Below are positions 3,232 to 52,850 of a stretch of DNA of 64,000 bases, in pieces (position 1 is the stretch's first letter; every line of letters begins with the position of its first letter). The stretch spans positions 1,664,001 to 1,728,000 of the forward strand of contig CM000155.2 in assembly GCA_000004695.1 (NCBI GenBank). The letters run 5' to 3'. The position numbers and the translations under genes were made by a program. The notes beneath the pieces are model-generated. The model had not been told where the DNA came from. It saw nothing but the letters and a program-made list of their open reading frames with translations, and did not search any database. This stretch comes from Dictyostelium discoideum. Lineage: Eukaryota.

Positions 3232-3990
3232 ATATGTAATCATTGTTTAAAAGAAATTAAAAAAGAAGAAGAAGAAATTAAACAAGAATGTGAAGAATGT
3301 AAAGTTTATAAATATTGTTCAATTGAATGTAAAGAGAAATCATCAATTGAATATCATAGTGTTTTATGTAAATCAACAGGATCAGGATTTAATTATTTAG
3401 AGAAACATGCATCGATAGAGAAGAGGAGATTTCCATTATTAGCAGGTAAAATATTAGCAAGAATGATAATGGGATATCATTTAGAGAAATCATCAAAATC
3501 AACATGGTTACCATTACAAATGTTATCATTTGCAAAGAAACCACCACCATTAGAATGGAAAGATGATTATTTAATTTTCTCAAGATCATTATTAAAAGGT
3601 ATTAATAATGAAAGTATGAAAAAGAAATTCGATTATGATTGGTTCGTTAGAGTAATGCAAATTCTTTACTTGAATACAATTGGTATTGATATTGATCCAA
3701 ATCAACAAAGCACCAAAATGTCATCACCAGAGTCTGGAATTGGTCTTTATTTACTTACATCATTCATCAATCATGATTGTGACCCAAATGCATTCATTCA
3801 TTTCCCTGATGATCATACGATGCATTTATCACCACTTAAACCAATTAATCCAGGTGATGAAATTACAATCTCTTATACTGATACAACAAAAGATTTAGTT
3901 GATAGAAGATCACAATTATTTGAAAATTATGGTTTTAATTGTGAATGTAAAAAATGTTTAAATGATTTATTAATTAAAAGAAATAAATAA
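3232..3990 (+). CDS. SMYD-like protein, exon 2 (MYND zinc finger CNHC...CEEC...YCSIEC...H..C; SET core NHDCDPN; post-SET CECKKC)
   Basis: Translation ICNHCLKEIKKEEEEIKQECEECKVYKYCSIECKEKSSIEYHSVLC ... FINHDCDPNAF ... ENYGFNCECKKC. Confidence 0.7.
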   Translation: MCNHCLKEIKKEEEEIKQECEECKVYKYCSIECKEKSSIEYHSVLCKSTGSGFNYLEKHASIEKRRFPLLAGKILARMIMGYHLEKSSKSTWLPLQMLSFAKKPPPLEWKDDYLIFSRSLLKGINNESMKKKFDYDWFVRVMQILYLNTIGIDIDPNQQSTKMSSPESGIGLYLLTSFINHDCDPNAFIHFPDDHTMHLSPLKPINPGDEITISYTDTTKDLVDRRSQLFENYGFNCECKKCLNDLLIKRNK

Positions 3991-4117
3991 AATAAAATAA
4001 TATTTAAATATATATAAAAAGAAGATAAAATGTTTTTATTTAATAATATTATTTTACCATATGGTGGTGGTAGTGGTGGTGGTGGTGGTGTAATTGTTGT
4101 AATTTTTTTTAAAAATT

Positions 4118-5979
4118 TTAATTTAAATATTTTTTTAACCATAATGAAATATTAACCCATTGATCTAAACGAGCATCAATTGAATCAAGACTATGACCAG
4201 TTTTTGGATACATTAAACATTTTGTTGGTACATCTCTTTCTCTTAACATACGATAATATAATAAACCTTGAGAAGGTGGAACACGAAGATCTGAATCACC
4301 TAAAGCTAATAATGATGGAATTTTGATGTTTTCAATATGGAAACTTGGTGAACATTTTCTCATTTTTTCAATTTCTTCCATTGATGGTAATGTATGATAT
4401 TGAGAGGTTGGATCAGAGAGATTAATACCAGCTTCAAAGAAACACCAATCTGGAATATCGGATAAGGTTGACATTGATGGAATATCGATTACAGGATTTC
4501 TCATGATTGAAGTTTTGACAATTGGGAATCTACTTAGATGTGCTGATAAGAAACCACCATGACTACCACCAATAACACCAATTTTATTTCTATCGATTGT
4601 ATTATCGATTTTATCGAGTGTGTAATTAATTGCTTGAACACAATCGTCAACATCCAAATCACCAATATAACCTGGTAAACAATCTACGAAATCTTTACCA
4701 TAACCTGTTGAACCTCTATAATTTGGAATTATAATATTATAACCCAATGAGAGTAAATAAGTGATTGTTGAAACATAACCAACATCTAAATTTGAATGTG
4801 GACCACCATGAATGAAAACTAAACAACCCAATGGTGAAGATTGTGTACTATTTTTATTCTTTAAGTAAATCAATTCAAATGATTTAATTGACTCTGTGTA
4901 TGGTTGTGGTGTTGGTTTTGATACTGGTACATTATGAATGGTTGCATTAAATGATTTGAAAATTGAATTACATTGTTCACTTGGTTTTGGTGAGTAAATT
5001 AATTGTTTCTCTTTATCACTACCCAAATAATCAACTAAATAAACTTTAGTTGGTTGATTTACTGATGATTCACCAATTAAATATTTCTTTGATTTAAAAT
5101 CAATATCATATAAAACATAAAGTTTTGGTTCTTCGTCACCACCATCAGTTGATGATGGAATTTTAATAATTTTCAATTCCTTTGATTCATAATTAAAAGA
5201 AACAATCATTTCAGTTGATCTAATAATTGTTGAAAATAAAAATGTTTTTTCATCAATAAATGGTCTCTCTGGTAATGATTGACAGAAAACACCTGGGAAT
5301 GAATCATTAAAATTCTTATAATCCAACAATGTTTCAAATGATTGTGGTGGTTGTTGTTGTTGAGTGATATTGTTTGAAGACCAATTTAAAGAGAAAATCT
5401 TTGAACAAGTATCATGAGCATAAATTCTTTCGTTAAAACCCAAGAAAATTAATTTTGAAGAATCTGGTGTAAAACGTGGTGATCTATAACAACCATTATT
5501 ACCATTTGGAATTAAATTTACAATTTGCAATGGTGTTGTTAATTTGGTTTGTTTTGGATCCAATTTTTGGTTCTCTTTCCATTGATTTCTAGCATTAATA
5601 AACTCTTTGAAATTTAAATGATACAATGAACTTGATCTATTGAAACATGCTCTAATACCAAGTTTTCTTTTACCAAAATTCCAACCAACATAAACTAATC
5701 CCTCACCATTTGGTGTCCAAATGACTTGACCTGCTGATATCTTTTCAGATGGGAATGGTTCAACTGGGAATACAACCTCCTTTTCAATATCTAATATAAA
5801 TATTGATGGATTTGCAACTGGTGAATAAGTTTCACCCCAATCATCTCTAAATACAAATTGATCACCAATAGCTTTATCTTTTGGTTCCTTATCAAAAAAT
5901 CCTGTTACATTTAATTTTGAATCTGCAATAAATGCTACATATTTCTCACATGGTGACCATGAAAAACTACCAAACCATT
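4118..5979 (-). CDS. Acylamino-acid-releasing enzyme / acylaminoacyl peptidase (S9C prolyl oligopeptidase family), exon 2
   Basis: GFSWSPCEKYVAFIA, GDQFVF..DWGE, GGPHS, YRGSTGYG and GGSHGG (catalytic Ser motif) align along the length with APEH. The N-terminal MEFLLILFIFFFFKKKK of the tracked ORF is read-through of the intron. Confidence 0.8.
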
Positions 5980-6073
5980 CTTTTTTTTTTTTAAAAAAAA
6001 AAAAAATAAATAAAATTAATAAAAATTCCATTATTATTATTATTATTATTATTAAATTTTATTAATTACAAAC

Positions 6074-6506
6074 CATCATTTAAAATTTTTTTATGAATAT
6101 CTTTTGAAGTAATTGAAGTAATTAAATGTGAACCATCAGTAATATCAAAAGAGAATTCGAATTCAGTTGAAGGGTTCTCTTTAATTGTTAAAACTTTCTT
6201 ATGTGATGGTGATACTGATATGATTGAAGTTGCTAATTCTTGTTGAATTGCTGATGAAATTACTTGGTTTTTCTTTGATGATGATGATGAATCTTTTAAA
6301 ATTGTTTTTTGTGACATATAAAATTTAGTTTTCTTATTGGTGATATCAATTTGAGATACAATGATTGATGCTGATGTTTGATTTTCATTACTTTCATCAT
6401 TGTTTGTAAAAAATGCGTTGTTGACTGTTGGAATTGATAATAACTCCCTGTAAACTTTAGTTGTATCTTCTCTATACTTTATTTCTTGTTCACTTAAACT
6501 TTCCAT
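6074..6506 (-). CDS. Acylaminoacyl peptidase, exon 1
   Basis: MESLSEQEIKYREDTTKVYRELLSIP resembles the APEH N-terminus. A phase-1 GTTTGT donor at 6073 and an AG acceptor at 5981/5980 give a 94-bp intron and the junction ...ILND-E-WFGSFSWS, which parallels human ...DDCFGCLSWS. Confidence 0.65.
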
Positions 6507-7354
6507 CTTTTATGTCTCTTTTTGAAAAAAAATTAAAAAAATAAAAAAAATTAAAAAAATTAAAAAATTAATTTAAACCACCACTTATTAAAAAAAAAAA
6601 ATAAAAAAAATAAAAAATTAAAAAAAAATAAAAATAAATTAAATTGCGAACTTAAAAAAAAAAATTCTCACACAAACTACCTTTCATAATTTTTTTTTTT
6701 TTTTTTTTTTTTTGTCAATAAATTAATCAATTAAAGATCTTTGATTTAACTCATATTTTTTTTTTAAAAAAAATAATAAAAAATAAAATTTAATAATTGT
6801 TTTAAAGGGAATGAAAAACAAATTAAAAAAATTTTTTTTTTTTTTATAAAAAAAAGTGTAAAATCTGAATATTTTTTGTTTAATATCAATAAAAAAAGTA
6901 AAAAAAAAAAAAAATGATTTTCCAAAAAAAATTAGAAAAAAGAAATTTATTAAATGTTAGGGTTAGTTATTTTTTTTCCCCCTCCCGAAAAATTTTAATA
7001 TTTTTAATAATAAAAAAAAAAAAATATGGGTTTTTTTTTCCCGTCCATTATCATATTTGCATCATTTTTTTTTTTTTTTATTTTTTATTTAATTTTTAAT
7101 TTATTTTTTGAGTCAATCCTGAAAAAAAAACCAAAAAAAAAAAAACCAAAAAAAGAAATTAAAAAAAAAAAAAAAAAAAAAAAAACAGTGTTTATATTCT
7201 TTTGATGGTAACCGAAAGAAATCAAAATAACATATAGTTGAAACATAAACTCTTACAATTCTTTAAAAATAATAATAACCCCAAAAAAAATAAAAAAAAT
7301 TAAAAAAATTAAAAAAAAAATAAAAAAAAAAAAAAAAAATAAAAAAATAAAAAA

Positions 7355-9121
7355 ATGATCAGAAACTTAATCAAAACAAAAACAAAAATAAATGAAATTA
7401 AATTTAATAGGAATTTTTTATCAAGTTCAATATTAAAAATAAGAAATCATAATGATGATAGTAATAATATATTATTTTCAAATTCAAATACCATTGAAAT
7501 TCAAAATCTCCCATTAAATATAACAACAACTGATCTATTGAATCAATTTAAAAATTATAAAATATCACCACATGGAATTAAAACAAAATATAATACAGAT
7601 AAAGGATTTGCTTATATTACCTTTGAAAATAATCAAGATTTTATGAAAGCAATAGACAAGAAATTAATTTCATTCAATAATTTAAATTATTCAATTGAAC
7701 CAATTAAACAATCATTATCATCCTTATTATTATCATCATCATCAAATGAAGAAGAAGAAGTAACAACAACAACTAGTGAAACTATAAATACAAAAGTTGT
7801 TCAACACGAAAATGTAAATATAATATCATCATTAAATTCAAATCATTATAATCATTCAATATCGTATCCAAATCAGTCAGCTATTACTCAACAATTATGG
7901 TTTGCAAGAGTTAGTAAAGAAGTTAATCCAGCAATAACTGAAGCACCAAAGTTAACAACAAAAACACCAGAAGAGAGTAAAGTTGAGGTGATTTTACCAT
8001 TTAGTAGTGATTTACAATTACGTGAAAATTATTTATCCCCATATGGTAATTTAAGAATCGGTAGATTCTTGGAAGATTTAGATGCAATTGCTACAGCTGT
8101 AGCTTTTAAACATGGTGAGAATGAGAATGACGGTTATAAGAAAATGTTTGTAACTGTATCAGTTGATACAATTAAAATTCTTAGACCCTTAATTCCAGAT
8201 AGGGATATTAAAATGGAGGCTAAATTATCATGGGTTGGTAATAGTTCAATGGAGATCATGATTAGAGTTTTCTCAAAAGATAATGACAAAACTCAACAAT
8301 GGGATCCTGTCCTAGTCGCATTCTTTACAATGGTTGGTGTAGATCCAAAAACAATGAAACCAACACTTATCAACTCATTAAAAGTTGAAACTCCAACAGA
8401 GAGGAGACTATTCGCTGAAGGTGAACAACATAAATTACAACGTTTAAATTCAAATCAGCAATCACTTGAAAAATTACCACCAACTCCAACTGAATTACAA
8501 ACTATTCATAATCTATTCATGATTTCAAAACAACAACACCAATCATCAGATGTTGTTGATAGAAATTTCATTCCAATGAATTCAACAAGTTTAGAAACTG
8601 TTATTTTATGTCAACCTCAAGAAAAGAATATTAACGGTCAAATTTTTGGTGGTTATTTAATGAGAATGGCATTTGAAACTGCTTATACAACTTGTTTTAT
8701 GAAGTTTCCAGAATCATTACCAAGATTTAGAAGTATTAGTGGTTTGAAATTCCTTAAACCTGTTGAAATTGGTGATATTCTTAATATGGAATCAACCATT
8801 ACCTACTCAAAGCCAATGAACTCTGAAGATGATTGTGAAAATCAAACTTATTATACTCAAGTAGAAGTTTTAGCCTATGTCACCGACCCTTCCATTGGTG
8901 AAAAAAAACTTTCAAATGTTTTTAATTTCACTTTTTATTGTGCTCCTTCAAAATCTCAAAAAGAAAAATTACAACAACAAAATACAAACAAAAAATTAAA
9001 ACAAATTTTACCTCAAACTTATTCCGAAGCAATGCGTTATTTAACTGGAAAAAGAATTATTGATAGTTATATAGAATTTGATCAATCACCTTCTAAAATG
9101 GATATTTTTAAAAATGAATAA
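7355..9121 (+). CDS. Acyl-CoA thioesterase (ACOT9-like, tandem hotdog domains) with an N-terminal presequence-like region and an RRM-like segment
   Basis: ILCQPQEKNINGQIFGGYLMRMAFETAYTTC and RIGRFLEDLDAIATAVAF match the two hotdog folds of ACOT9/10. The N-terminal ...IEIQNLP...KGFAYITFENNQDFMKAI looks like RNP2/RNP1. Confidence 0.7.
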   Translation: MIRNLIKTKTKINEIKFNRNFLSSSILKIRNHNDDSNNILFSNSNTIEIQNLPLNITTTDLLNQFKNYKISPHGIKTKYNTDKGFAYITFENNQDFMKAIDKKLISFNNLNYSIEPIKQSLSSLLLSSSSNEEEEVTTTTSETINTKVVQHENVNIISSLNSNHYNHSISYPNQSAITQQLWFARVSKEVNPAITEAPKLTTKTPEESKVEVILPFSSDLQLRENYLSPYGNLRIGRFLEDLDAIATAVAFKHGENENDGYKKMFVTVSVDTIKILRPLIPDRDIKMEAKLSWVGNSSMEIMIRVFSKDNDKTQQWDPVLVAFFTMVGVDPKTMKPTLINSLKVETPTERRLFAEGEQHKLQRLNSNQQSLEKLPPTPTELQTIHNLFMISKQQHQSSDVVDRNFIPMNSTSLETVILCQPQEKNINGQIFGGYLMRMAFETAYTTCFMKFPESLPRFRSISGLKFLKPVEIGDILNMESTITYSKPMNSEDDCENQTYYTQVEVLAYVTDPSIGEKKLSNVFNFTFYCAPSKSQKEKLQQQNTNKKLKQILPQTYSEAMRYLTGKRIIDSYIEFDQSPSKMDIFKNE

Positions 9122-9521
9122 AAAAAAAAAAATACAAATAAAAAAAAAACATTCAAATAAATTAAATTTATTATTATTATTATGTTAGATTAAAAAATTA
9201 AAAAAAAAAATAATTAATTATTTGTGTTACTGTTAAACATTTTGAAAATGAATTTGATGTTAATAATAAAACACATTTTGTAACTGGATGTGTTAGTAAA
9301 ATTAAATAAAGAATTGATTCAGAATAATTTTGAGGTATAATTCTTTTTATTTTTTTTTTTTTAATAATTTTTTTTTTTTTCTATTATTTTTTTTTATTAT
9401 TTTTTTTTTTACAAAACATTTTATGTTATATATATATATTACTATTAAAAAGAAAGAATCTGGAAAAAAAAAAAAATATACCAATTTTTTTTCTTTCTTT
9501 TGTTTTTTTTTTTTTTTTTTT

Positions 9522-9773
9522 TTATTTCCATAATTTGTTGATTGACATATTTTGTTCTGAATCCTTCTTCATAACTTTAGAAACTGCCATTTCAAAATCT
9601 TCTTGAGATACATGAACTCTTCTTTCACGAAGAGCATACATACCAGCTTCAGTACAAACTGCTTTTAATTCTGCACCTGAAGCACCATTCATTTTATCTG
9701 AAATCTTTTTAAGGTTAATTCCTCTTGTTAAATTCATTTTTCTTGAATGGATCTTTAAAATATCTAAACGACC
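9522..9773 (-). CDS. psmC5: 26S proteasome regulatory ATPase subunit Rpt6 (PSMC5), exon 2
   Basis: [21 protein letters not shown]...[26 protein letters not shown] is near-identical to the PSMC5 C-terminus. The acceptor AG lies at 9775/9774. Confidence 0.85.
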
Positions 9774-9905
9774 CTATTTGTTTTTGAAAAAAAAAAAATA
9801 TAAAAAAAGGAATAATAAAGAAATAATAAAGAAATAATAAAAGTTAATTTAAATTATTTTTTTTTTTTGTTTTTTTTTTTTATGAAAAAAAAAAAAAATA
9901 CATAC

Positions 9906-10865
9906 AGCATCACCTGGATTTGGAAATTCAATTTTTCTATCAATTCTACCTGGTCTTAATAAAGCTGGATCTAAAATATCAATACGATTTGTACACATGA
10001 GTACTTTAATGTTTTTAGTACTTTCAAAACCATCCAATTGATTGAGTAACTCTAACATAGTACGTTGAACTTCACTATCACCACCACCGGAACCAGATTC
10101 ACCACGAGATGAACCAATGGAATCGATTTCATCCATGAAAATGATTGAAGGAGCATGTTCTCTAGCCATAATGAATAATTCACGAACCATACGACTACCT
10201 TCACCAATATATTTTTGAACCAATTCGGAACCACTAACTCTAATGAATGTGCAATCGGTATGATGAGCAACGGCACGAGCTAACAAAGTTTTACCAGTAC
10301 CTGGTGGACCATACAAGAGTACACCCTTTGGTTGAGCGATACCTAAACTTTCAAATAACTCTGGATGTTTAATTGGCAACTCAATGACTTCTTTGATCTC
10401 TTTGATTTGTTTATCCAATCCACCAACCATATCATAGGTTGAATCTGGTATCTTTTCAACTTTCATCAAACTGACCAACGGATCAATTTTATTTGGTAAG
10501 ATTCTATGGAGTGTGTAACTTTCATGTTTCAATGCAGCTCTGGTTGATGGTGTTAACTTGGCAATATCAACGGTTGGATCAATATCAACCACGAATTTAC
10601 CCTCTGGATTAACCTTTACCAATACTTTATTCTTTCCCATTAATTTGACTACCTCTGCTACATGTGATCCTGGGTTAGTCAATAATTGTAATTCCTCTTT
10701 TAACATTCTTACACGATTATTTAATTCATTTCTTTGTGCTTCTAATCTTCTTAAATCTTGTGCTTTTTCATTAACTTTAATTTCTAATTCTTCAATCTTT
10801 GAACAATAATATGATTTAATACCTTTTGTTTCATCTTTATTTTGTTGATTATTTTGTGCAACCAT
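9906..10865 (-). CDS. psmC5: 26S proteasome regulatory ATPase subunit Rpt6 (PSMC5), exon 1
   Basis: Walker A GPPGTGKT, Walker [24 protein letters not shown] and a GTATGT donor at 9905. The 132-bp intron is in phase and the total length is 403 aa. Confidence 0.85.
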
Positions 10866-11356
10866 TTTTTTTTTTTTTTTTTTTTTTTTAATTAATTTAA
10901 TTCCTTTTTTTTTTAAAAAAACCCAAATAAAAATTTTTTTATTTTTTCCTCTGAATATTAAATATAATATATATCAAAGTAGGGGGGGGGGTTTTTTTAG
11001 AAAATTTTTTTTATAATGGAAAATTAAAAAAAAAATTTATTAAAATTAAAAAAAAAAATTTATTAAAAAAAAAAAAAAAAATTTAAAAAAATTAATTTAA
11101 ATTTTCCAAATTAAAAAAAAAAAAAAGGTGAACTTGATCATGGAAGTTCACTTGGTGTTTTTTTTTTATTTTTTTTTTTTATTTTTTTAACCCTTTTTTA
11201 TTTAAATTAATATAATTTAAAAAAAATATAAAATATAAATTAAAAAATAACTAATATCAAACAAATAATTTTTTTTTTTTTTTTTTTTTTTTTTCTTAAT
11301 TCTGGAAATTATGAACCGATTTCTCTTTTTTGTGAAAAATTATGAATTACTTGGGA

Positions 11357-11387
<31 letters not shown>

Positions 11388-12477
11388 CTTCTTATTTTTG
11401 TGTTATTAATTATTGATTTTTAAGATTAAACCTAATCCTTTTTTAATAAATAAAGATATTAATCTTTACTGTTTTTTTTTTCACATTATTTTTCCCAACT
11501 GCAAAATTTTTTTTTTTCCAAAATATTTAATGATCTTTTTAAATTTATATCCAAAATGTTTAAATATTTGAAAAAATAATAAATAAATGCACATATATAT
11601 ATATATTAATATAATTCGAAAATTTTAATTTTTTTTTATTCATATTTTAAAATAACCATCTTCTTTTTTCATTTTTTTAAATTATTTTAATCTCAAAAAA
11701 TGGAAAGTTAGTTCTTTTTTTTATTTTTAATATTAACTTTTTATTTTTGTCCTACTGTTTTTTTTTTCAAACATTGTGTTATTTAAAAAAAAAAAAAAAA
11801 ATATCCCGAATAATAATAATAAAATAAAGTAATAAAATAAAAGAGATTGCAAATAAAAGAGTTATTTTTAAAAAGTATAAAAAAATAAGAAAAAAAGGTA
11901 ATCTAAAAAAAAATAAAAAAATAAAAAAAAAAAAAAAAATAAAAAAAAAAAAAAAATAAAAAATTGTCAACACGGTAACACTAAAAAAAAATTTTTTAGA
12001 AAAATAAAAAAATCAAAAAATTTTGCGTCGCGCATTCGTTTTTGAATTTTTTTTTTTTTTTGAAAATTTTTTGTTAGTTACAGAATACAGAAAAAATGTA
12101 TGTTGGACTATATCACATATCACATATCACATATAATAATTTAATGTGTGATAATATAACTCAATCAATTCACTCTCTCAAATTTGAAATATAATTATAT
12201 AATGATGGATAATAGTTGATTAGAGATATAATAGATAGAAAAAAAAAAAAAAGAGAAGGATTGAGGATATAGGATATAGATTATCAAACCACAATTACAG
12301 GTACACAGCATTAATTTTTTCAATCTTTAATCTTTAATTTCAATCTATCTTTAATCTTCAATAATTCAATCAACATATAAATTTATAAATCAAATGAAAG
12401 AGAAGGAGAAAGAGAGACGAGTAATATATAAAATATAGATTATGGATTATTAATATTGATTTAAATTAATTAATTAG

Positions 12478-49525: not shown

Positions 49526-49645
49526 GTAAGTTAAAACTAAATTATTTTAATAAAAAATTCTATACAAATTCTAATTAATTTATTTTTATTTAATAATAAC
49601 AACAACAATAACTTTAACAACAATAACTATAACAACAACAACAAC

Positions 49646-49794
49646 AACAACAAATAGTAATTCAACCAAAAAAATGGTATTGTAATAGAATGATGAAATT
49701 TGAAAAGATCAACAAAAATGGGTTTTTAACTAATGATACACTACATATAAAGTTTAAAATTGAAGTTTTTAATTGGATTTTAACACCTTTTGAG
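49646..49794 (+). CDS. TRAF-like protein, terminal exon (C-terminal MATH strands)
   Basis: AAATAG acceptor. The phase-1 junction gives ...FFEN-L-IQPKKWYCNRMMKFEKINKNGFLTNDTLHIKFKIEVF...*. Confidence 0.55.
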
Positions 49795-49835: not shown

Positions 49836-50074
49836 TAAAAATAAAGGTAAAAAAAAAAAAAATAAAGAAAAAAATTTAAAAGTAAATAAAAAATAAAATA
49901 AAATTGCGGTATAGGCCAATCTTTGGAAATTAAAAAAAGTCAGAAATCTAGATTTTTTTTTTATGAATTATTTTAAAATGATTAATTTTTAAAAAAAAAG
50001 TTTTCCACATACACACGGTTGGAGCTTACAAAATTAGGTAAAGATATATCTAGAAAAAAAATAATAAAATAATA

Positions 50075-50735
50075 AAAAATAAAAAATACCAATAATATAA
50101 TTATTTTAATAATAATAAAAAAAAAAAAAAATAAAAAAAATAATAATAAAATAAAATTAATAACAAAGTATTAAAAGTAAGAGATTTGGTTATTTAAAAT
50201 AATTACCAATATTGGAAAGCTATCATGTTTACGAATAATTTGACCATTATTATAGTATTGTGGCTCTCTATTTTGGTCTTTTATAGTATATATTTGATCA
50301 TGAACGGAACCTGGGAATCCCTCAGGATGTAGTAACAATAATCTGTATGATCTAGTGCATACCTCACAATGAAATTTGACCACATGACTTTGCTTTTACC
50401 AGAATAGTATTTTTTTTTTGGATTTGGTAATCAGTGGGAGTTTCAATAACAATAGAGGTAGATTCAGCAGCAATTGCACGATAAAGCACATTAGATATAG
50501 GATGTTTTAAAAAGCCAACTGATTCAACAAGTTTATCATATCTCTTTTCCATTTTTTCCTTGCATACAACTCAAAGTGAATGAATGGTTGACTATAGTGA
50601 TTTTGAAATGTTTTTGGACTAATACCAAAAGTAACACATATTTCATAAATTGGAAGATATTGTTTCCAATATAAGAGAGTCTAGCACAAAAAAAAATAAA
50701 AAATAAATAATGTTATTAATTAATTCATTTTATTT
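50075..50735 (-). repeat. Arm A of a large inverted duplication. It carries decayed PIF/Harbinger-like (DDE_Tnp_4-like) transposase coding remnants
   Basis: The reverse complement aligns at about 90% with 51740-52258 but contains an extra roughly 190-bp segment flanked by the 8-bp direct repeat ggtcaaat. Peptides: ...YDKLVESVGFLKHPISNVLYRAIAAE..IVIETPTDYQIQKK, YYSGKSK, VKFHCEVCTRSYRLLLLHPEGFPGSVHDQ. Confidence 0.6.
50171..50552 (-). pseudogene. Harbinger/PIF-type DDE transposase remnant (frameshifted; catalytic D positions substituted)
   Basis: In order: IVIETPTDYQIQ (cf. AIDGTHIPIQ), YYSGKSK (cf. YYSGKKKRH), then KFHCEVCT...EGFPGSVHDQ (cf. ...vcD....GWPGSVHDS), spread across three frames. 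Confidence 0.5.
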
Positions 50736-51339
50736 TTTACATTTTTTATTTTTTTTTTTTTTTGTTTATAATTTTTTTTTTTTTTTACATTTTGTTTAAT
50801 TTATGACTTGGTGTAATTTTACCAAATTATTTAATTTAATTAAATCTAATTTAATTTAATTTAATTTTTTTTTTTTTCATTTAATTTTAAAAAATGAGTA
50901 GTTTTTAATGGAACATATTATTGTCTAAAAATAGATATTTATTTTTAAAAATAATATTATTTTTTTTTTTCTATTCAAAATTAGAAATTTCCAGAAAATC
51001 TTAAAAAATACGTATTTCATTTTAAAAGTTAAGGTAATTTTGTTTTTTTATCTAAAAAAAAAAAACATATTATTGTAAAAAAGAATATGTATTTTTGGAA
51101 TAATAATATTATTTTAAAAATTTACACAAAAATCTTTTGTCTTTATGAACATTTTAAAATCAAAAATTAAATTAAATTAAATTAAATTAAATTAAATTAA
51201 ATTATATTAAATAGGTATAATTTTTTGACTTGTGGAAAAAAAAAATTATTATGTGAAGGGGTAAAAATTTTTACATAAAATTTAATTATGTTAATCGGGG
51301 TGTTAAATTTTTCTTTAAATTTTTTTTTTTAAGTTGTAT

Positions 51340-51480
51340 TTTTTTGATTAAATAAATAAATTCATAATTATTTCCTTCTATTAATAAAAAAAAAAAAAAA
51401 AAAAAAATTCATAATTATCTCCTTCTATCAATAAAAAAAAAAAATAAATAAATTCATAATTATTTCCTTCTTTTAATAAA
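51340..51480. repeat. Three tandem copies of an approximately 50-bp unit (aaattcataattatttccttctattaataaaaaaaa...) inside the spacer of the inverted duplication
   Basis: Directly visible: ...aaataaattcataattatttccttctattaat(a)n / aattcataattatctccttctatcaat(a)n / aaataaattcataattatttccttcttttaat(a)n. Confidence 0.8.
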
Positions 51481-51739
51481 AAAAATGGTAAACTCTTGAC
51501 CAAGAAAAAAGCAAATGACTCAACCAAATTTAATGTTGTATTCTTTTGGATTAGAACCTGATATTATAGATAAATTATTAAATTTAATTAATGAAAATGA
51601 AGAACTTAAAGAAAAACGTATTAAAGATAAACATATAATTTGTGTGGGTGTTTAATATTAAAATAAAACTATAAAAAATAAATATAATAATAAAAATAAA
51701 AATAAAAATAAAAAATAAAAAATAAAAATAAATGTTGAA

Positions 51740-52258
51740 AATGAATAAATTAATAACATTATTTTTTTATTTTTTTTTTTGTGTTAGACTCTCTTGTGTT
51801 GGAAACAATATCTTCCAATTAATGAGATATGTGTTACTTTTGGTAATAGTCCGAAAACATTTCAAAATCACTATAGCCAAACCATTCATTCACTTTGAGT
51901 TGTATGCAAAGGAAATAATGGAAAAGAGATATGATAAACTTGTTGAATCAGTTGGCTTTTTAAAACATCCTATATCTAATGTGCTTTATCGTGCAATTGC
52001 TGCTGAATCTACCTCTATTGTTATTGAAACTCCCACTGATTACCAAATCCAAAAAAAATTACTATTCTGGTAAAAGCAAAAGTCATGTGGTTAAATTATT
52101 CGTAAACATGATAGCCTTCCAATCTTGAGTAATTATTTTAAATAACCAAATCACTTCCTCTTACCTTAATAATTTGTTATTAATTTTTATTTTATTATTA
52201 TTATTATTATTATTTTATTATTACAATAATTATATATTATTGGTATTTTTTATTTATA
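51740..52258 (+). repeat. Arm B of the inverted duplication. It carries the HTH-like N-terminal part of the transposase remnant and lacks the 190-bp DDE-core segment
   Basis: Tracked ORF 51732-52073 ...FQLMRYVLLLVIVRKHFKITIAKPFIHFELYAKEIMEKRYDKLVESVGFLKHPISNVLYRAIAAESTSIVIETPTDYQIQKK, then a stop. Confidence 0.6.
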
Positions 52259-52689
52259 AAAATTAAAATCTGGGGCAATATAAAAAAAAAAAAAATAAAA
52301 AAAATAAAAAAAAAAAATGTGAAAATTAAAAAAATAAAAAAAAATAAAAATATTTACACCAACTTTTCATTTTTACATAAAATTTATAAAAAAAAAAAAC
52401 AAAAAAAAACAACAACAACAACAAATAGTAATTCAACAATATATTTTTTTTTATGTTTTTTTTTTTACATTTTCTTTTTGGCTTCACATTACTGTTTTTT
52501 TTTTTTTTTTTTAAAATTTTAATCAAACTATTTTTGTGCGATGTCAATTATTTCTAGATTTTTATCTCTTTTTTAGATTACTAAAACAAATATGATAAGA
52601 TTAAAATATTAAAAAAAAAAAATAAGGGGGAATTCAATATTAATTTATTTTTAAAAATGATTGTTTGTATATATACTATATTTTATTTT

Positions 52690-52850
52690 ACTTAATTTTT
52701 TTTAAAATTTTTGGGGTTATAAATATATCTCTTATTAAAGATATTTTTAATAATTAAAAATCTCTTATTAAAGATATTTTTAATAATTAAAATTTTTGGG
52801 GTTATAAATATATCTCTTATTAAAGATATTTTTAATAACCAAACTCACAA
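52690..52850. repeat. Interleaved tandem repeat X-Y-Y-X-Y (X = tttttggggttataaatat; Y = atctcttattaaagatatttttaataattaaaa, internally palindromic) about 230 bp upstream of the first PKS gene
   Basis: Directly visible. Y contains ttattaaa...tttaataa inverted repeats. Confidence 0.8.

Follow-up and report, generated by a model that had tools for sequence, protein, structure and literature searches.

Two truncated, inverted copies of a PIF/Harbinger-type transposon between a TRAF-like and a polyketide synthase gene of Dictyostelium discoideum

Introduction

PIF/Harbinger DNA transposons, among them maize PIF, rice Ping and Pong and zebrafish Harbinger3_DR, are related to the bacterial IS5 elements, and the typical partner of their transposase is a Myb-like second protein. 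The superfamily was barely defined in 2001, the year in which the DDT and thug-S/T elements of Dictyostelium were reportedly described by Glockner et al. The DNA transposons listed for D. discoideum comprise only the Tdd, DDT and thug elements, with transposases unlike known ones (PMC5633606). Tdd-4 and Tdd-5 (Ginger2/TDD) are characterized by a Gypsy-integrase-like transposase, terminal inverted repeats (TIRs) of 260-297 bp and a 5-bp target-site duplication (TSD) (PMC2836005). Here we analyzed a stretch of 64,000 nucleotides of D. discoideum (contig CM000155.2 of GCA_000004695.1, positions 1,664,001 to 1,728,000; referred to as the window), which very probably contains two copies, truncated, mutated and unable to move, of a dictyostelid PIF/Harbinger transposon of low copy number; they are arranged head-to-head, with a TRAF-like gene on one side and a polyketide synthase (PKS) gene on the other.

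The family to which we assign these copies shares with PIF/Harbinger elements a DDE_Tnp_4 transposase with an N-terminal helix-turn-helix (HTH) region and the motif series D...GDxxY...RxxxE, as well as TIRs, 3-bp TSDs made up of A and T only, a second open reading frame (ORF) and a weak similarity to the IS5 family. It differs from them in that its TSDs read AAT/ATT instead of the usual TAA/TTA and that its second ORF is without a detectable Myb/SANT-like domain; in addition, the lineage is very isolated and the window copies are non-functional fragments. The Tdd, DDT and thug elements are likewise class II elements of low copy number and a few kb in length, have TIRs and are found in this genome; like the family, thug-S contains an intron. 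Membership in the Tdd-4/Tdd-5 group was excluded, since the family has a DDE_Tnp_4 transposase and a 3-bp TSD. In the accessible literature, no link of Harbinger or PIF with Dictyostelium was found.

An inverted pair of transposase remnants

A blastn comparison of positions 50040-50820 with 51640-52300 of the window identified arm A (coding strand minus, 50077-50803) as an inverted match of arm B (plus strand, 51653-52255). Within the arms, 50373-50803 pairs with 52097-51653 (91% over 447 nt, E=2e-170) and 50077-50246 with 52255-52088 (84% over 177 nt, E=6e-41), while a repeat search delimited an inverted core of 150 nt (50412-50561 and 51909-52058) that is 99% complementary. An earlier note on this DNA, made from the sequence alone, had described a large inverted duplication with arms about 90% identical, and these values agree with it. 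The location that it gave for the arms was right as well, but the copies of which they form part are longer, copy A reaching to 49966 and copy B spanning approximately 50808-52385 across an internal deletion of about 390 bp. Likewise, the deletion of a core segment that had been noticed in arm B is present and flanked by repeats; it measures 136 bp (50247-50372 in arm A) and not 190 bp, and the flanking direct repeats, AATTTGACCA at 50237-50246 and 50373-50382, are 10 bp and not 8 bp long and represent the other strand of the ggtcaaat reported before.

The same arrangement was found in an independent D. discoideum assembly. A contig of GCA_054883475.1 (L005) is 99.76% identical to the window across 20.5 kb and has the same gene order of a DUF1697 gene, the TRAF-like gene, both arms and the PKS gene; the inverted structure is therefore no assembly artefact. 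GC content increases to 30-35% only at the two exon-2 remnants described below, and the search around the locus revealed no further copy of the element, no tRNA and no Rfam family.

Two further repeats were observed next to the pair. A 36-nt direct repeat (94%), (CAA)nATAGTAATTCAAC, is located at 49631-49666 and 52402-52437 and brackets copies A and B as a whole. Its left copy coincides with the last intron/exon junction of the TRAF-like gene, and the repeat may be left over from a duplicated paralogue of the TRAF-like gene or may record how the pair was inserted. Three units of a repeat of about 57 nt (TTAAAATTTTTGGGGTTATAAATATATCTCTTATTAAAGATATTTTTAATAA...) are found in the intergenic region upstream of the PKS gene (52702-52843).

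Assignment to the PIF/Harbinger superfamily

The protein search recovered Dictyostelium homologues at 49-93% identity, including the gene models of the window's own arms (P0003 and P0005), and the close relatives of the window peptide that are 69-86% identical to it are full DDE_Tnp_4 proteins. With a gathering cutoff of 24.8 bits for Pfam DDE_Tnp_4 (PF13359), P0041 (327 aa, D. cf. discoideum) reached 79.4 bits (E=2.9e-22, profile positions 2-157/158), P0045 77.9 bits and P0042 (326 aa, D. firmibasis, automatically named "DDE Tnp4 domain-containing protein" in UniProt) 69.6 bits. P0041 and P0042, both recovered by profile search, are intact three-exon gene models. P0001 and P0002 also exceed the cutoff, yet only across profile positions 2-70. 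Translation of the downstream DNA revealed a third exon, partly skipped by the gene predictions, which codes for GDRAYISLPNFVVPHK...NNFVSSNRVYVENFF...GNLDHLNKI, and the re-spliced protein of the D. discoideum locus L002 that includes this exon matched the entire profile with 80 bits (E=2e-22). The search with this profile left the window peptide below the cutoff and placed the full-length relatives at 70-80 bits. At the level of the family, the PIF/Harbinger (DDE_Tnp_4-like) identity proposed in the earlier note is correct, as P0041, P0042 and P0045 match the whole profile, and the Harbinger reading of the inverted pair is supported by this sequence evidence.

The window copies themselves are borderline in a direct comparison with the profile. 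No Pfam match was obtained with the single-frame ORFs of the arms, and in a frameshift-corrected arm A peptide HTH_Tnp_4 was detected at E=0.19, in the right order. Their membership follows from 85-97% DNA identity to members of the family.

Alignment with the intact relatives also located the catalytic residues. In P0041 the triad consists of D126 (AADSTSI), D218 (ILGDRAY) and E261 (RVYVENFF), in columns that match those of canonical relatives, and P0042 has the same three motifs in the same columns. Both window arms have Glu in place of the first catalytic Asp, and the second Asp is deleted in arm A and absent from arm B. The peptide motifs of the arms were confirmed to run in the order given before, and frameshifts were found in both copies. 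A substitution of the first Asp by Glu had been reported as well and does exist, although the site is AA[D/E]STSI and not the E of IVIETPTD. The "vcD" taken for the second catalytic Asp is non-catalytic, this residue being part of GDRAY in the third exon. The register that placed the first Asp in IVIETPTD and the second in "vcD" was rejected on the alignment with the intact relatives, and HDSFPIL, which had been considered as the GDxxY motif, was dropped after GDRAY was found in exon 3.

Beyond the dictyostelids, the family transposase is weakly similar to bacterial IS5 transposases, and no related solved structure was found at E<=1. The lineage is isolated, with 30 cluster representatives at E<1e-3 among 1.84 billion, and the named representatives are all dictyostelid (D. 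purpureum, D. firmibasis, Polysphondylium violaceum and D. cf. discoideum).

The complete element

DNA comparison of five loci defined the family as a dispersed unit with flanking genes that differ at every locus. Three complete copies were delimited, their lengths being measured from core to core:

L002: left TIR 7652-7759, right TIR 11341-11449, element 7657-11448, 3.8 kb
L003: left TIR 7425-7542, right TIR 11658-11753, element 7438-11752, 4.3 kb
L006: left TIR 3688-3793, right TIR 7737-7830, element 3693-7826, 4.1 kb

TIR identity in these copies is 86-91%. The termini begin with AAATTTTATGAAAAAATGAAAAGTTGGTGTAAA and continue T-rich for about 100 nt, the complex TIR cores comprising about 35 nt. 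All three complete copies are flanked by 3-bp direct repeats (AAT/AAT in L002 and L003, ATT/ATT in L006), none of which extends to 4 bp. Because the flanking repeat is direct and copy-specific, it was considered a TSD and not part of the TIR. The TIRs and 3-bp TSDs that would be expected for Harbinger-like copies are accordingly found in the relatives, the duplicated triplets being AAT/ATT and not the TAA/TTA named in the earlier note.

Each of the three copies also contains a second, divergently transcribed gene of 291-361 aa, and at three loci the locus tags of companion and transposase are adjacent (000525/526, 008114/115 and 010981/982). Such a divergent gene was counted in four copies, two of them truncated at one end. 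Several copies of the companion gene exist, and they occur in D. discoideum and D. cf. discoideum only. No match of its protein to Pfam or NCBIfam was obtained, and the AlphaFold2 model (pLDDT 31.5) is unusable, with three N-terminal helices predicted at low confidence. The linked ORF anticipated for a Harbinger element is therefore there, while no Myb/SANT domain was detected in it, and a companion protein without a recognisable Myb domain poses a small question for Harbinger biology.

As judged from these relatives only, the intact element would be 3.8-4.3 kb in length, with inverted termini, a 3-bp TSD and two divergent genes encoding a three-exon 327-aa DDE_Tnp_4 transposase with an HTH and a companion of about 360 aa. 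By analogy to characterised Harbingers, the transposase, possibly aided by the companion, would bind the TIRs and move the element by cut-and-paste. One D. cf. discoideum genome contains several copies that are at least 90% mutually identical, at least two of them with an intact transposase frame; among the D. discoideum data examined, no copy was intact. Together, termini, 3-bp TSD, three-exon transposase and linked second gene provide a usable dictyostelid definition of PIF/Harbinger, and some copies of D. cf. discoideum and D. firmibasis seem to have an undamaged transposase frame.

The same features bear on the possibility that the family consists of domesticated host genes resembling HARBI1 and that the window contains two pseudogenised paralogues. 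HARBI1 belongs to the same DDE_Tnp_4 fold family, and one D. firmibasis copy (L001) has an open three-exon ORF despite the replacement of the catalytic Glu by Lys (RAYVK); moreover, the copies are found among ordinary genes and the family is dictyostelid-restricted. Host genes of this kind would not be expected to have TIRs and 3-bp TSDs on complete copies, different flanks at each locus, several copies of at least 90% identity in one D. cf. discoideum genome and a second gene that travels with the transposase gene, nor would most of them have decayed through different deletions. Together with the dispersed distribution of the decaying copies, for which no conserved synteny was seen, these observations make domestication of the family highly improbable. 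The gene model of the D. firmibasis copy, RB653_004816 (P0002, 272 aa; L001 10001-11323), is mis-spliced in that a wrong acceptor was used and GDRAY...RAYVK was skipped; this copy could represent either a decaying copy or an early domestication.

Structure of the two window copies

Copy A (49966-50803) is on the minus strand and consists of the following parts:

49966..50049, minus strand: exon 3 remnant, reads DISLPNFVSSNRVYVENFFFKINHFKII, 97% identity to L002 11029-11098
50050..50206, minus strand: intron 2, AT-rich, GT..AG, from alignment with L002 and L004, 98.7% identity to intron 2 of L004
50207..50680, minus strand: exon 2 pseudogene with HTH region, first catalytic motif, YYSGKSK and PGSVHD, from translations and alignments
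50681..50803, minus strand: 3' part of intron 1; blastn homology to arm B stops at 50803 / 51653

The exon 3 remnant keeps the catalytic-Glu motif RVYVENFF (49990-50036, readable as SNRVYVENFF) but has lost the GDRA codons (12 bp) and a segment of about 66 bp, and both deletions also occur in the unlinked copy L004. Because copy A ends at 49966, the last ~55 codons, the 3' untranslated region and the right TIR are missing, and since it is broken off at 50803 it is also without exon 1, the upstream region, the companion gene and the left TIR; no TIR is present at either end. Exon 2 contains a TGA nonsense codon (50573-50571), GAA in place of the first catalytic Asp codon (50465-50463), several 1-bp frameshifts and a 15-bp deletion (LKIAD). 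The public gene model P0003 overlaps part of this exon, across which GC content reaches 32-35%. Arm A runs collinear with L002 10189-11098.

Copy B (approximately 50808-52385) is on the plus strand and is composed as follows:

50808..51484, plus strand: 5' intergenic region, presumed promoter, previously regarded as a spacer, from alignment to L002 and L003
50829-50887: (ATTTA)n array in the intergenic region (TRF)
50912/51064: direct repeat of about 52 nt in the intergenic region (repeat search)
51164-51212: (AAATT)n array in the intergenic region, inverse of (ATTTA)n (TRF)
51350-51485: 45-bp tandem repeat, 2.9 units, in the intergenic region (TRF)
51485..51643, plus strand: exon 1 (MVNS*PRKKQMTQPNLMLYSFGLEPDIIDKLLNLINENEELKEKRIKDKHIIC), from tblastn of P0001, P0002 and P0004 and alignment
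51644..51787, plus strand: intron 1, GT..AG, A-rich, from L002 alignment, with the exon structure backed by the intact P0041 and P0042
51788..52128, plus strand: exon 2 pseudogene, from alignments and translations
52129..52255, plus strand: 5' part of intron 2; 52093-52255 aligns to L002 10745-10910, and the alignment resumes at L002 ~11307
52257..52385, plus strand: 3' untranslated end and right TIR (about 52277-52385), element end at 52385

The repeats that had been reported for the spacer, a pair of inverse pentanucleotide arrays, a tandem repeat and a direct repeat, were all found again and belong, as conserved parts, to the intergenic region of the element. The spacer itself belongs to copy B, as the window is collinear with L002 in one stretch that includes the intergenic region, exon 1, intron 1 and exon 2 (50721-52097 with L002 9220-10598, 85% over 1431 nt); in addition, 50808-51245 is 83% identical to L003 9358-9780. 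The (ATTTA)n/(AAATT)n pair around approximately 280 bp is also kept in L002 (~9320-9365 and ~9665-9700), where it lies between the divergent genes.

Copy B is left-truncated, without the companion gene and the left TIR. Exon 1 has a TGA at codon 5 and a change of its last codon from Trp to Cys; the public gene model P0005 begins at the second ATG of this exon (51515). In exon 2, a TGA (51896-51898) and a +1 frameshift are found, GAA (52005-52007) replaces the codon of the first catalytic Asp, and 136 bp are deleted; the junction of this deletion, TGGTTAAATT, is at 52087-52096, and the block KFHCEV...PGSVHD...QYYNNG was lost with it. With the internal deletion of ~390 bp, the rest of intron 2, the whole of exon 3 including the second catalytic Asp and the Glu, and the stop codon are gone. 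The right TIR matches L002 directly at 11341-11449 and in inverted orientation at 7655-7759 and contains a complex 33-nt core at 52353-52385 (TTTACACCAACTTTTCATTTTTACATAAAATTT). A pattern search of the window with the TIR core produced this right end only (1 match, 0 expected by chance).

Neither window copy has the two TIRs, the TSD or the open transposase ORF of the intact element. With stop codons, frameshifts, Glu at the first catalytic Asp and the second Asp deleted or missing, their sequence predicts that neither can encode a transposase, and since at most one TIR is present neither is mobilisable in trans. The pair represents ordinary transposon debris, for which no function is expected today.

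Origin of the head-to-head arrangement

The earlier note had left the choice between a head-to-head pair of decayed Harbinger-like elements and a foldback derivative. The former agrees with two truncated copies whose relatives have full DDE_Tnp_4 domains, TIRs, TSDs and a second ORF. A foldback element, with the spacer as a separate insert or loop, was rejected: the spacer is the 5' region of copy B and collinear with L002 and L003, the true TIRs are the ~100-nt termini, and the arms are internal coding segments and not termini. In addition, the 3' half of arm A is closest to the unlinked fragment L004 of the same genome, and this identity of 98.5-100% indicates dispersed defective copies and no foldback.

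Closer comparison of the arms with each other and with L004 revealed a mosaic pattern. Over the 5' stretch of exon 2, each arm has the other as its closest match (96.9%), and both carry changes that are absent in L002, L003 and L001, namely TGG to TGA, GAC to GAA (Asp to Glu) and GAT to GTT (Asp to Val). From the 136-bp segment onward, a stretch that includes the 3' part of exon 2, intron 2 and exon 3, the identity of arm A to L004 is 98.5-100%, versus 90-93.5% to arm B. Arm A and L004 also share three internal deletions, and L004 has GAT where both arms have GTT. This mosaic identity fits two copies and gene conversion, and a pure local inverted duplication fits less well. We propose that two copies of one defective sublineage landed or were joined next to each other and subsequently suffered deletions, and that gene conversion between the inverted arms probably homogenised the exon-2 core.

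Alternatively, a single copy that was already defective could have been duplicated in inverted orientation in situ, by fold-back repair or aberrant transposition, with independent deletions thereafter. The derived inactivating changes common to both arms and absent from L002, L003 and L001 are what such an event would leave behind, as are the mutual best match of the 5' part of exon 2 and the 99% complementarity over 150 nt. The closer relationship of arm A to L004 than to arm B, including the three common deletions, is at odds with it, as is the mosaic pattern with GAT in L004 and GTT in both arms. Furthermore, copy B retains upstream sequence and a TIR absent in copy A, and copy A retains exon-3 sequence absent in copy B. 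We consider a local duplication unlikely.

Several points weigh against two independent PIF/Harbinger copies as the explanation of this locus. The frameshift-corrected arm A peptide scores 21.9-23.1 bits with DDE_Tnp_4 (E=6e-5 to 1.5e-4), which is just below the cutoff, and its frames were picked with the Harbinger hypothesis in mind. The inactivating mutations that the arms have in common could also stem from one defective copy that was duplicated locally in inverted orientation, and gene conversion as the cause of the mosaic among A, B and L004 is reached only by inference. Mobility of the element and its TSDs are deduced from occupied sites alone; the TSDs come from three copies in very AT-rich DNA, for which the chance of three matches is, as a rough estimate, ~1e-3. 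Finally, the companion is without a detectable Myb/SANT domain, so that a two-protein mechanism as in canonical Harbingers stays an analogy.

The inverted arrangement also invites comparison with Mu killer of maize, in which part of a MuDR element is duplicated in inverted orientation and causes silencing. The likeness is one of form only, in that head-to-head partial transposon copies could in principle form a hairpin RNA. Read-through, for example from the upstream TRAF-like gene, would in this case generate a double-stranded RNA hairpin of about 600 bp and direct RNA interference (RNAi) against the family. Complementarity of 91% over approximately 450 nt, with a 150-nt core at 99%, would permit such a structure; the arrangement is kept in two assemblies, no intact copy was among the D. 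discoideum data examined, and the RNAi machinery of D. discoideum acts on transposons (PMC5633606). A silencing locus would also help to explain why these data contained no intact copy, while the sister lineage D. cf. discoideum has several copies of at least 90% mutual identity, at least two of them with an intact transposase frame. Transcription from the intergenic promoter of the element would, however, proceed through both arms in sense direction and away from each other and would produce no hairpin, the decay by deletions looks neutral, and two assemblies of one species carry little information on selection. A function of the pair in silencing is thus very unlikely.

Relation to named Dictyostelium elements

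That the classic Dictyostelium transposons do not include this superfamily, as the earlier note had stated, is in line with the accessible literature (PMC5633606), with DDT and thug being compared by description only. Since this literature lists only Tdd, DDT and thug, the Harbinger family may add a superfamily to the catalogue of D. discoideum; alternatively, it may reveal the affinity of an element that has already been named.

In the latter case, the arms would be fragments of thug-S/T or DDT, whose Harbinger affinity went unrecognised at the time, when, as mentioned above, the superfamily had hardly been delimited. Thug elements account for about 0.1% of the genome, and an intron is present in thug-S (PMC5633606, PMC4894637); both points fit a low-copy, intron-bearing element. 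On the other hand, the transposases of Tdd, DDT and thug are stated to resemble none known (PMC5633606), whereas the intact protein of the family matches DDE_Tnp_4 at E~3e-22; the transposable element annotation of D. firmibasis and D. giganteum, which made use of the Repbase entries for D. discoideum, reports no Harbinger; and the published small RNAs that were compared do not map to the element. These points do not settle the matter, and identity with a named element is possible, if rather doubtful. Judged by the accessible literature, the family appears to be a new, or not visibly described, dictyostelid member of a well-known superfamily.

An identification as thug-S by way of the published small RNAs was also attempted and abandoned, as the single match falls outside the element. 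This match, to the miRNA_can_D3 pair (PMC4894637), is located at L004 8499-8523, contains one mismatch and lies approximately 1.5 kb from the Harbinger fragment.

Gene models and neighbouring transposon-type genes

Fragments of the family have entered several public gene models. ACTFIT_009402 and ACTFIT_009386 (L005 8657-9038 and 10001-10559) are pseudogene fragments identical to window arms A and B; the window pair is annotated as two spurious small genes in a recent assembly. Three further models are chimeric, with pieces of the element combined with adjacent genes: P0006, in which the partner is a MyTH4 gene, P0008 and P0045. L004 contains a locus of this type:

L004 10001-12264: chimeric or fragment gene model

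Synteny with the window was considered for a D. firmibasis copy that is also adjacent to a PKS gene (L007) and was rejected. As the PKS similarity is opposite in orientation and reaches 74-85%, this locus was judged paralogous.

Other DNA transposon genes were observed close to members of the family. The repeat-rich D. discoideum locus L002 contains a second, different Harbinger-type gene (motifs LICDCS, VLGDSAY and RRVYVEQFFGRL; DDE_Tnp_4 at 26.6 bits) as well as hAT-type genes (Dimer_Tnp_hAT and ZBED1 RNase-like) and an RVT fragment. The transposon-type genes of this locus other than the element are located at:

L002 4185-5216
L002 5481-7169
L002 11842-12235

The DNA-transposon superfamilies of D. 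discoideum may accordingly go beyond those of the classic list. In D. cf. discoideum, a 446-aa gene with a PF03184 DDE_1 domain (pogo/Tigger-type) at L006 2166-3506 directly adjoins the complete Harbinger element.

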